Positions 38,442-53,996 of a DNA stretch of 64,000 nucleotides are shown piece by piece. Made by a program: the position numbers and the translations under genes. Position 1 is the stretch's first letter. Every line of letters begins with the position of its first letter. Origin of the DNA: Escherichia coli (GTDB taxonomy: Bacteria; Pseudomonadota; Gammaproteobacteria; Enterobacterales; Enterobacteriaceae); NCBI RefSeq assembly GCF_003334305.1, contig NZ_QOWS01000006.1; one strand, written 5' to 3'. The notes beneath the pieces are model-generated. The model was not told the origin of the DNA, ran no database searches, and saw nothing but the letters and a program-made list of their open reading frames with translations.

Positions 38442-38479
38442 TTTGCACCTCAAAAAAGAGTGGCAAAGGACTTGAGAAG

Positions 38480-38565
38480 GAGCCTCAAATCCCTTCGCCG
38501 GCGTTATCCGGATCAGGTTCGACGGGTATTTTCTCAGCGCACGCGTTTGCGTGGCACCCCGTTGA
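38480..38565 (-). ncRNA. TPP (thi-box) riboswitch in the thiBPQ 5' leader
   Basis: Minus-strand GGGGTGCCACGCAAACGCGTGCGCTGAGAAAATACCCGTCGAACCTGATCCGGATAACGCCGGCGAAGGGATTTG carries the conserved CUGAGA and ACCUGAUCNGGAUAAUGCC-like thi-box. Confidence 0.85.
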
Positions 38566-38604
38566 GAACGGCGTTAGTGTAGTGATTTTGTTATCTACCA
38601 GCAA

Positions 38605-40327: not shown

Positions 40328-40554
40328 GATGAAGCAAGGGGGTGCCCCATGCGTCAGTTTTATCAGCACTATTTTACCGCGACAGCGAAGTTGTGCTGGT
40401 TGCGTTGGTTAAGCGTCCCACAACGATTAACCATGCTTGAAGGACTGATGCAGTGGGATGACCGCAATTCTGAAAGTTGACTTGCCTGCATCATGTGTGA
40501 CTGAGTATTGGTGTAAAATCACCCGCCAGCAGATTATACCTGCTGGTTTTTTTT
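40328..40554 (+). ncRNA. sgrS: sugar-phosphate stress small RNA SgrS (Hfq-dependent, dual-function)
   Basis: Starts GATGAAGCAAGGGGGTGCCCC...; contains the base-pairing segment GAGTATTGGTGTAAAATCACCCG and ends in the terminator hairpin CCAGCAGATTATACCTGCTGG plus a U8 tract; divergent from sgrR. Confidence 0.9.
40349..40480 (+). CDS. sgrT: 43-aa peptide encoded within SgrS (glucose-uptake inhibitor)
   Basis: ATG at 40349 gives MRQFYQHYFTATAKLCWLRWLSVPQRLTMLEGLMQWDDRNSES; it is the 3' part of track ORF 40181-40480. Confidence 0.85.
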   Translation: MRQFYQHYFTATAKLCWLRWLSVPQRLTMLEGLMQWDDRNSES

Positions 40555-46532: not shown

Positions 46533-46560
46533 TAAAAAAACCCGCGCAATGGCGCGGGTT
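46533..46560 (-). terminator. leu operon attenuator (intrinsic terminator between leuL and leuA)
   Basis: Minus-strand CCCGCGCCATTGCGCGGG followed by TTTTTTTA, 22 nt after the leuL stop. Confidence 0.85.
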
Positions 46561-46582
46561 TTTTGTTTGACTGCGTGCTGGC

Positions 46583-46669
46583 TTAATGCTGGATGCCGCT
46601 CACTCGTCTACCGCGCAAAGAAGATGCGTTTAGTAGTAGTAGACCGATAAAGCGAACGATGTGAGTCAT
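46583..46669 (-). CDS. leuL: leu operon leader peptide (28 aa, four tandem Leu codons)
   Basis: Hand translation of the complement of 46583-46669 gives [28 protein letters not shown]; the four Leu are all CUA; followed by the attenuator hairpin; it is the 3' part of track ORF 46583-46774. Confidence 0.85.
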
Positions 46670-46899
46670 TAAATCAGCTCCAGATGAATGCGATATGCTT
46701 TTAGAGTTACTGGATACAAAAACGGATGTCAACCCTGACGCAATAAAAACGTCCCGCCAGCGTGAGTTCTGCATCCGTAAAATTAGCTAATTGTGCTGCG
46801 GTGGTTAAAGTAAGCGATATTAATTTCTGCTTAACTACCGACGCTTTTCATCGGTTGACATATTTCAGCATAAATTTTTGCATCTAATCAACGAGGAAA

Positions 46900-50988: not shown

Positions 50989-51993
50989 GTGAAACTGGAT
51001 GAAATCGCTCGGCTGGCGGGAGTGTCGCGGACCACTGCAAGCTATGTTATTAACGGCAAAGCGAAGCAATACCGTGTGAGCGACAAAACCGTTGAAAAAG
51101 TCATGGCTGTGGTGCGTGAGCACAATTACCACCCGAACGCCGTGGCAGCTGGGCTTCGTGCTGGACGCACACGTTCTATTGGTCTTGTGATCCCCGATCT
51201 GGAGAACACCAGCTATACCCGCATCGCTAACTATCTTGAACGCCAGGCGCGGCAACGGGGTTATCAACTGCTAATTGCCTGCTCAGAAGATCAGCCAGAC
51301 AACGAAATGCGCTGTATTGAGCACCTTTTACAGCGTCAGGTCGATGCCATTATTGTTTCGACGTCGTTGCCTCCTGAGCATCCTTTTTATCAACGCTGGG
51401 CTAACGACCCGTTCCCGATTGTCGCGCTGGACCGCGCCCTCGATCGTGAACACTTCACCAGCGTGGTTGGTGCCGATCAGGATGATGCCGAAATGCTGGC
51501 GGAAGAGTTACGTAAGTTTCCCGCCGAGACGGTGCTTTATCTTGGCGCGCTGCCGGAGCTTTCTGTCAGCTTCCTGCGTGAACAAGGTTTCCGTACTGCC
51601 TGGAAAGATGATCCGCGCGAAGTGCATTTCCTGTATGCCAACAGCTATGAGCGGGAGGCGGCTGCCCAGTTATTCGAAAAATGGCTGGAAACGCATCCGA
51701 TGCCGCAGGCGCTGTTCACAACGTCGTTTGCGTTGTTGCAAGGGGTGATGGATGTAACGCTACGTCGCGATGGTAAACTGCCTTCTGACCTGGCAATTGC
51801 CACCTTTGGCGATAACGAACTGCTCGACTTCTTACAGTGCCCGGTGCTGGCAGTGGCTCAACGTCACCGCGATGTCGCAGAGCGTGTGCTGGAGATTGTC
51901 CTGGCAAGCCTGGACGAACCGCGTAAGCCAAAACCTGGTTTAACGCGCATTAAACGTAATCTCTATCGTCGCGGTGTGCTCAGCCGTAGCTAA
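50989..51993 (+). CDS. cra: catabolite repressor/activator (LacI family; FruR)
   Basis: 334-aa ORF with GTG start: [25 protein letters not shown]... HTH followed by a periplasmic-binding-protein-like domain. Confidence 0.95.
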
Positions 51994-52509: not shown

Positions 52510-52594
52510 TGGCTTGACAAGCTTTTCCTCCGCTCCGTAAACTCCTTTCAGTGGGAAATTGTGGGGCAAAGTGGGAATAAGGGGTGAGGCTGGC
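52510..52594 (+). promoter_or_regulatory. mraZ promoter region with three GTGGG(A/G) direct repeats at 10-bp spacing (MraZ autoregulatory sites)
   Basis: TTGACA at 52514-52519; GTGGGAAATT, GTGGGGCAAA and GTGGGAATAA at 52551-52580, immediately upstream of the mraZ ATG. Confidence 0.7.
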
Positions 52595-53053
52595 ATGTTC
52601 CGGGGAGCAACGTTAGTCAATCTCGACAGCAAAGGGCGCTTATCAGTGCCTACCCGTTACCGGGAACAGCTGCTTGAGAACGCTGCCGGTCAAATGGTTT
52701 GCACCATTGACATTCATCACCCGTGCCTGCTGCTTTACCCCCTGCCTGAATGGGAAATTATCGAGCAAAAATTATCGCGTCTGTCGAGCATGAACCCGGT
52801 TGAGCGCCGTGTGCAGCGCCTACTGTTAGGTCATGCCAGCGAATGTCAGATGGATGGCGCAGGTCGATTGTTAATCGCGCCAGTACTGCGGCAACATGCC
52901 GGGCTGACAAAAGAAGTGATGCTGGTTGGACAGTTCAACAAGTTTGAGCTGTGGGATGAAACAACCTGGCATCAACAGGTCAAGGAAGATATCGACGCAG
53001 AGCAGTTGGCTACCGGAGACTTATCGGAGCGACTGCAGGACTTGTCTCTATAA
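52595..53053 (+). CDS. mraZ: transcriptional regulator MraZ
   Basis: Track ORF 52559-53053 is 5'-extended; the ATG at 52595 ([26 protein letters not shown]) gives 152 aa. Confidence 0.92.
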
Positions 53054-53054
53054 A

Positions 53055-53996
53055 ATGATGGAAAACTATAAACATACTACGGTGCTGCTGGATGAAGCCG
53101 TTAATGGCCTCAATATCCGTCCTGATGGCATCTACATTGATGGGACTTTTGGTCGCGGTGGTCACTCACGTCTGATCCTCTCGCAGCTTGGCGAAGAGGG
53201 GCGTTTGCTGGCGATCGATCGCGACCCGCAGGCTATCGCCGTTGCGAAGACTATTGATGATCCGCGCTTCTCCATCATCCACGGACCTTTCTCCGCGCTG
53301 GGCGAATACGTTGCCGAGCGCGATCTTATCGGCAAGATCGACGGCATTCTCCTCGATCTTGGCGTCTCTTCACCGCAACTTGATGATGCTGAGCGCGGCT
53401 TTTCCTTTATGCGCGATGGTCCGCTGGACATGCGTATGGACCCAACCCGTGGGCAGTCAGCCGCTGAATGGCTACAAACCGCAGAAGAAGCCGATATCGC
53501 CTGGGTATTGAAAACCTATGGTGAAGAGCGTTTTGCCAAACGCATTGCCCGCGCCATTGTCGAGCGTAATCGCGAACAGCCGATGACCCGCACCAAAGAA
53601 CTGGCGGAAGTCGTGGCTGCTGCAACGCCGGTGAAAGATAAGTTTAAACATCCCGCGACTCGTACCTTCCAGGCGGTGCGCATTTGGGTAAACAGTGAAC
53701 TGGAGGAGATAGAGCAGGCGCTAAAAAGCTCGCTCAACGTGCTGGCCCCGGGAGGGCGGCTTTCGATCATCAGCTTCCACTCGCTGGAAGACCGTATTGT
53801 GAAACGTTTTATGCGTGAAAACAGCCGCGGTCCGCAAGTTCCGGCAGGGTTACCGATGACTGAAGAGCAGCTCAAAAAACTGGGTGGCCGTCAGCTGCGA
53901 GCATTAGGCAAGTTAATGCCGGGCGAAGAAGAGGTGGCTGAGAATCCTCGTGCCCGTAGTTCAGTTCTGCGTATCGCAGAGAGGACGAACGCATGA
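53055..53996 (+). CDS. rsmH: 16S rRNA (cytosine1402-N4)-methyltransferase
   Basis: Track ORF 52926-53996 is 5'-extended; the ATG at 53055 ([38 protein letters not shown]) gives 313 aa; 1 nt after the mraZ stop. Confidence 0.93.

Follow-up and report, generated by a model that had tools for sequence, protein, structure and literature searches.

Three phased GTGG boxes downstream of the Pmra -10 hexamer of Escherichia coli as the operator of the MraZ repressor

Three short direct repeats (MraZ boxes) located just upstream of mraZ in the 64 kb stretch of Escherichia coli DNA analyzed here (the window) constitute, with a probability of about 0.95, the operator of Pmra, the promoter of the dcw (mra) cluster, and are bound by the MraZ protein encoded in the adjoining gene. 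The element is already known, being the described E. coli MraZ binding site, and belongs to a well-characterised family. Direct binding of MraZ to the repeats upstream of E. coli mraZ and repression of Pmra were reported by Eraso et al. 2014, as cited in PMC8475190 and PMC7761207, which supports the proposal of an earlier note on this DNA that MraZ binds direct repeats in its own promoter region and represses the dcw cluster. The identification made here draws on the anatomy of the boxes, their non-random occurrence, their conservation and the presence of a cognate protein with DNA-contact residues, and takes binding and repression from the literature.

Many E. coli chromosomes match the 401 bp around the boxes with 100% identity, and the box region was found in 5424 of 5426 complete E. 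coli genomes. Strain K-12 MG1655 is identical to the window across the boxes, with position 52595 of the window corresponding to 89634 of MG1655. Genes follow the order ilvN, leader peptide, cra (50989-51993), a 600-bp intergenic region, mraZ (52595-53053, + strand), rsmH, ftsL and ftsI. According to the RefSeq annotation of an identical E. coli locus and the list of open reading frames, rsmH (mraW; 53055-53996, + strand) is the first gene after mraZ in the repressed operon, and is followed by ftsL and ftsI. Elsewhere in the window, Rfam matches above the gathering score correspond to SgrS (40328-40554, + strand), the leucine operon leader (46534-46683, - strand), a TPP riboswitch (38472-38571, - strand) and naRNA4 (22661-22740, - strand), all of which are expected in this part of the E. 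coli chromosome.

Pmra comprises a -35 hexamer TTGACA (52514-52519, + strand), identified by consensus scan and conserved across Enterobacteriaceae, and a -10 hexamer TAAACT (52538-52543, + strand), identified by promoter scan. With their 18-nt spacer (52514-52543) the two hexamers match the consensus at 10 of 12 positions, the best result of the consensus scan in the intergenic region. Box 1 begins 7 nt past the -10 hexamer, and the same gap occurs in 55 of 62 distinct relatives. The published transcription start lies 38 bp upstream of mraZ, giving a 38-nt 5' UTR (PMC7761207; PMC5089854), and thus maps to position 52557 on the + strand (52595 minus 38), inside the first repeat unit, whereas the geometry of the -10 hexamer predicts a start near 52550-52552. 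Box 1 overlaps the transcription start at either position, and boxes 2 and 3 fall within the first ~20 transcribed bases. The 13 nt that separate the published start from the -10 hexamer are an unusually long distance, and the exact overlap of the boxes with RNA polymerase is therefore uncertain. The repeats had previously been placed between the -35 hexamer and the ATG; the positions of both landmarks (TTGACA at 52514-52519, ATG at 52595) stand, but the location is more closely defined as between the -10 hexamer and the ATG, over the transcription start. A Shine-Dalgarno-like GAGG, read from the sequence, occurs at 52586-52589 (+ strand), 5 nt before the ATG.

Mutations listed from the long-term evolution experiment (LTEE) also bear on the promoter assignment. 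Two C to T substitutions, described as 82 and 53 bp upstream of mraZ (PMC4301190 supplementary data), map to positions 52513, the base on the 5' side of the -35 hexamer, and 52542, inside TAAACT. These positions are consistent with TTGACA and TAAACT being the working promoter.

As read from the sequence, the boxes are GTGGGA (box 1, 52551-52556), GTGGGG (box 2, 52561-52566) and GTGGGA (box 3, 52571-52576), all on the + strand, and they head the 10-bp units GTGGGAAATT (52551-52560), GTGGGGCAAA (52561-52570) and GTGGGAATAA (52571-52580). Box starts are exactly 10 bp apart in a single orientation, and the start of box 1 precedes the mraZ ATG by 44 nt. The pattern GTGGGR-N4 repeated three times has a single match in the 64 kb window, both strands considered, and none in 100 dinucleotide-preserving shuffles. 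Also, TGGG-N6 in triplicate matches once in the window against 0.01 expected, and GTGG-N6 in triplicate matches once in the window and never in 200 block shuffles. At the same spacing, GTGG pairs are at chance level (4 observed versus 2.9 expected, two of the four belonging to the Pmra site). The three GTGGG(A/G) units at helical spacing that had been noticed earlier are therefore real, at exactly the positions given, and do not arise in shuffled sequence.

The description of these units as tandem 10-bp repeats holds in part only. Their 10-bp phase and common orientation were upheld, but the units are mutually 60-70% alike, repetition being confined to the 5-6 nt boxes, and Tandem Repeats Finder reported no array in the box region. 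A repeat search of the same region recovered just AGTGGGAA, present twice with 20-bp spacing. A tandem repeat array at 52551-52580 was rejected on these grounds, the units being too divergent, and three phased boxes is the accurate description.

Conservation was assessed in 80 Enterobacteriaceae mraZ loci retrieved by a genome scan with the MraZ protein (88-96% protein identity). The triple GTGG-N6-GTGG-N6-GTGG is present on the coding strand, 30-80 nt upstream of the ATG, in all 80 loci, whereas it was absent from 16000 shuffled upstream regions. A second such triple was not found on either strand in the 271 kb of the 80 loci. The prediction that the repeats upstream of mraZ would be conserved among close relatives was thus borne out. 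The alignment was anchored on the GTGG triple, which by itself makes the GTGG columns invariant; in the columns free of this constraint, boxes 1 and 2 almost always have G as their fifth base (58 of 59 distinct sequences for box 1), and no exception occurs to the TT preceding box 2 or to the AAA preceding box 3. In contrast, the relatives differ freely at spacer positions 52566, 52567 and 52575-52579. At 52575, the fifth position of box 3, G occurs in E. coli only, the other 80 loci, E. albertii among them, having T, C or A. Because this G is limited to E. coli among the loci compared, the conserved unit, as judged from the alignment, is GTGG(G), or AAAGTGG in the case of box 3, rather than GTGGG(A/G); the latter motif is present in the window, but the core kept among relatives is GTGG. 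The abstract by Eraso and colleagues reportedly places the bound sites, three direct repeats, between Pmra and mraZ, and the repeat itself is said to have been written TGGGN with 5-nt spacers, in comparison to which the conserved core found here lies one base to the left, as GTGG.

In 16 of the 80 loci (the Buttiauxella group and relatives), the ATG follows box 1 at 54 nt and not 44, with exactly one additional 10-bp period inserted ahead of the Shine-Dalgarno region, after box 3.

Within E. coli, approximately one third of the genomes show a one-base difference in the 96 bp around the boxes. In five sampled variants the two common polymorphisms fall at 52531 (C/A, in the spacer between the -35 and -10 hexamers, K-12 having A) and at 52549 (C/T, two bases before box 1), outside both the boxes and the hexamers. 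Strain WS3294A (NZ_CP035819.1), one of the 5424 E. coli genomes, has lost the 5 bp CAGTG equivalent to 52549-52553, which removes the GTG of box 1. This deletion could be either a natural operator mutant or an assembly error.

The best 120 protein homologues of MraZ were all from Enterobacteriaceae, and distant taxa were taken instead from representative sequences at 36-63% identity, nine of which were located on metagenomic contigs. Strict triples of GTG(G/T)-N6 occur in three of these nine distant loci, one of them with four boxes, and at least two in-phase GTGN boxes occur in four further loci, so that recognisable boxes are found directly after a -10-like hexamer in 7 of 9, in support of the conservation of the repeats across bacteria. 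Several distant loci either repeat the E. coli layout, TTGAC(A/G)-17-TAAACT followed by boxes, or have box 1 fused to the -10 hexamer (TATAGTGG). In the remaining two loci (L088 and L090), the 200 nt preceding the called mraZ start contain no boxes. Their absence could be due to a longer leader such as that described for Rhodobacter mraZ (PMC5089854), to a wrong or different start codon, or to loss of the operator.

The protein expected to bind the boxes is encoded immediately downstream. The mraZ open reading frame (52595-53053) specifies 152 aa and is annotated in RefSeq as division/cell wall cluster transcriptional repressor MraZ; PF02381 is present in its homologues. The product contains two DxxxR motifs, DSKGR (residues 11-15) and DGAGR (residues 87-91). 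In the cryo-EM structure of the M. genitalium complex, K13, R15 and R86 are described as reading the GTG(T/G) bases in the major groove (PMC12957436), and K13, R15 and the second arginine are kept in the alignment of the E. coli protein to this solved MraZ (PDB 9qlr). The site therefore presents together at least three direct GTG(G/T) boxes separated by six nt with a 10-bp period; a position upstream of mraZ at the head of the dcw cluster, just downstream of the -10 hexamer and over the transcription start; a cognate MraZ with two DxxxR motifs and basic contact residues; and boxes that are kept at orthologous loci while their spacers vary.

The G-runs of the boxes lend themselves to a different explanation, namely that they form an intramolecular G-quadruplex, in the non-template strand or in the 5' UTR, that modulates mraZ transcription or translation in place of protein binding. 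Positions 52553-52584 (GGG-N7-GGGG-N6-GGG-N5-GGGG) are indeed the sole canonical motif of four G3+ tracts with N1-7 loops on the + strand of the window, and in S. aureus a G-quadruplex downstream of the mraZ promoter is described with biophysical data and reporter effects (PMC11796246). However, the motif needs the GGG of box 3, and with 52575 being G in E. coli only, the third tract is GG in the other 80 loci. What is conserved is GTGG at a 10-bp period and not four G3 tracts, and an mRNA beginning at the published start, 52557, would lack the first G tract. Since the third G tract is restricted to E. coli, a G-quadruplex cannot explain the conservation and is at most a lineage-specific overlay coexisting with MraZ binding; as a replacement for the MraZ operator we regard it as very improbable. 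A second canonical motif of the G-quadruplex type (GGGGAGAGGGCCGGGGTGAGGGG) was observed elsewhere in the window, on the - strand at 29650-29672. It lies in a G+C-rich palindromic repeat beside REP-like sequences, between two large - strand open reading frames, in what we take to be the araA-araD intergenic region.

It could also be argued that the repeats act in RNA, by giving the mraZ 5' UTR a structure or a site for protein binding (for example through CsrA GGA motifs, or as a translation enhancer), with the DNA periodicity being incidental. With a start at 52550-52557 the boxes lie largely within the transcribed leader, and boxes 1 and 3 contain GGA. Nevertheless, an RNA structural element was rejected, given that the leader folds no better than shuffled sequences (z = 0.29, with equal or better folding in 117 of 200 shuffles), and the CsrA/GGA reading was rejected as well, given that the GGA of box 3 is not conserved. 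Rfam yielded no family at the box site. Box 1 precedes the start site or coincides with it, and in several distant loci it overlaps the -10 hexamer (TATAGTGG), a position that has meaning at the DNA level, while strict 10-bp phasing is a property of the DNA helix. Action at the RNA level is accordingly a reading to which we attach next to no credence, and the MraZ operator remains the preferred identity of the boxes.

Whether this operator is larger than published was considered in the light of the bases that follow box 3. An in-phase GGGG (52581-52584, + strand) starts 10 bp after the start of box 3 and might be a degenerate fourth MraZ box, a function that we infer. Of 62 distinct relatives, 50 have GGGG at this position, box 3 plus 10, and in some of these the ribosome-binding site and ATG are displaced 10 bp downstream. 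This count carries little weight as evidence for a fourth box, because the sequences of the relatives are themselves related and the GGGG adjoins the Shine-Dalgarno region. The same four bases are a hot spot for IS150: four insertion alleles, 11-12 bp upstream of mraZ and recovered from at least six LTEE populations (PMC4301190 supplementary data), all map within 52581-52584 (REL606 92,424-92,427). An operator that exceeds the three published boxes, by means of a fourth box at 52581-52584 and of a quadruplex that is created by the T to G change in box 3 and competes with MraZ binding, is in our view unlikely. If the fourth box were true, the bound oligomer would also reach the Shine-Dalgarno region. 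If the box 3 reading were true, the E. coli-specific T to G change would create the G-quadruplex motif, and a quadruplex in the non-template strand and MraZ could compete.

For the three-box operator, the following mechanism is proposed. MraZ is an oligomeric protein of the AbrB/SpoVT type, each subunit providing a beta-strand 'cradle' as DNA-binding motif. Because the boxes are 10 bp apart, they face one side of the helix, and adjacent subunits of one oligomer could enter three successive major grooves cooperatively. By homology with the M. genitalium cryo-EM complex, each box would be occupied by a single subunit, and the oligomer ring would open as it binds. The boxes extend from 7 nt after the -10 hexamer over the transcription start and the first ~20-25 transcribed bases, and bound MraZ would be expected to block RNA polymerase. 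The outcome would be negative autoregulation of mraZ together with repression of rsmH, ftsL, ftsI and the mur genes. However, loss of mraZ in E. coli is described as having no evident phenotype (PMC8475190), and the physiological weight of MraZ repression in this organism is therefore unclear. Also, the MraZ of M. gallisepticum has been reported to behave as an activator on overexpression.

The site matters in that repression through the MraZ boxes at Pmra would set how strongly essential genes of division and of the cell wall (ftsL, ftsI and the mur genes) are expressed, and in that experimental evolution targets the Pmra region with adaptive mutations. The site has been mapped before, its counterparts in several phyla are characterised, and the complex has a published structure. 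What is added here to the described element is its comparative confirmation and a slightly sharper definition of the core, as GTGG with TT and AAA 5' flanks.

Comparison with published MraZ sites, as had been suggested for checking the repeats, revealed the same core and 10-bp period in M. genitalium and B. subtilis. The boxes of M. genitalium and other Mollicutes are given as AAAGTG(T/G)-N3 in four copies (PMC12957436; Fisunov et al. 2016), and the cryo-EM structure of the M. genitalium complex (2026) is described as having adjacent subunits of the opened MraZ ring bound cooperatively to successive boxes (PMC12957436). The two sets of boxes agree in their GTG(G/T) core, their direct orientation at 10-bp intervals, the A-rich stretch on the 5' side (AAAGTGG in E. 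coli box 3) and their placement at the transcription start; in the protein, K13, R15 and R86 of M. genitalium, which contact the DNA, correspond to K13, R15 and R91 in E. coli. They differ in the number of boxes (four versus three clear ones in E. coli), in the fourth base, which is mostly T rather than G in M. genitalium, and in the oligomer, reported mainly as an octamer in M. genitalium and as a 12-mer in E. coli (PMC12957436).

In B. subtilis, three GTGG[A/T]G repeats with 4-nt spacers are described as the sole triple in the PY79 genome (bioRxiv 2022.02.09.479790). Architecture and period are identical to those of E. coli and, in each case, the triple is the only one in the sequence searched, that is, the PY79 genome there and the 64 kb window here. 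Differences reside in the fifth and sixth bases of the boxes and in the dominant repressed target, which is ftsL in B. subtilis. PmraBc of B. cenocepacia resembles the E. coli site in the placement of its repeats downstream of the -10 hexamer and over the start site with a 10-bp period, but is described as having four 7-nt repeats, 3-nt spacers and a 100-nt 5' UTR (PMC7761207). S. aureus likewise has a G-rich segment between the mraZ promoter and the mraZ start, and the E. coli segment fits the G-quadruplex pattern; in E. coli, however, this pattern is lineage-specific and predicted, and it is the protein-binding core that is conserved and not the G tracts. The closest counterpart is the E. 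coli Pmra operator with its 'MraZ boxes' (Eraso et al. 2014, J Bacteriol 196:2053), which is the same locus with the same sequence and from which the site analyzed here shows no substantial difference.
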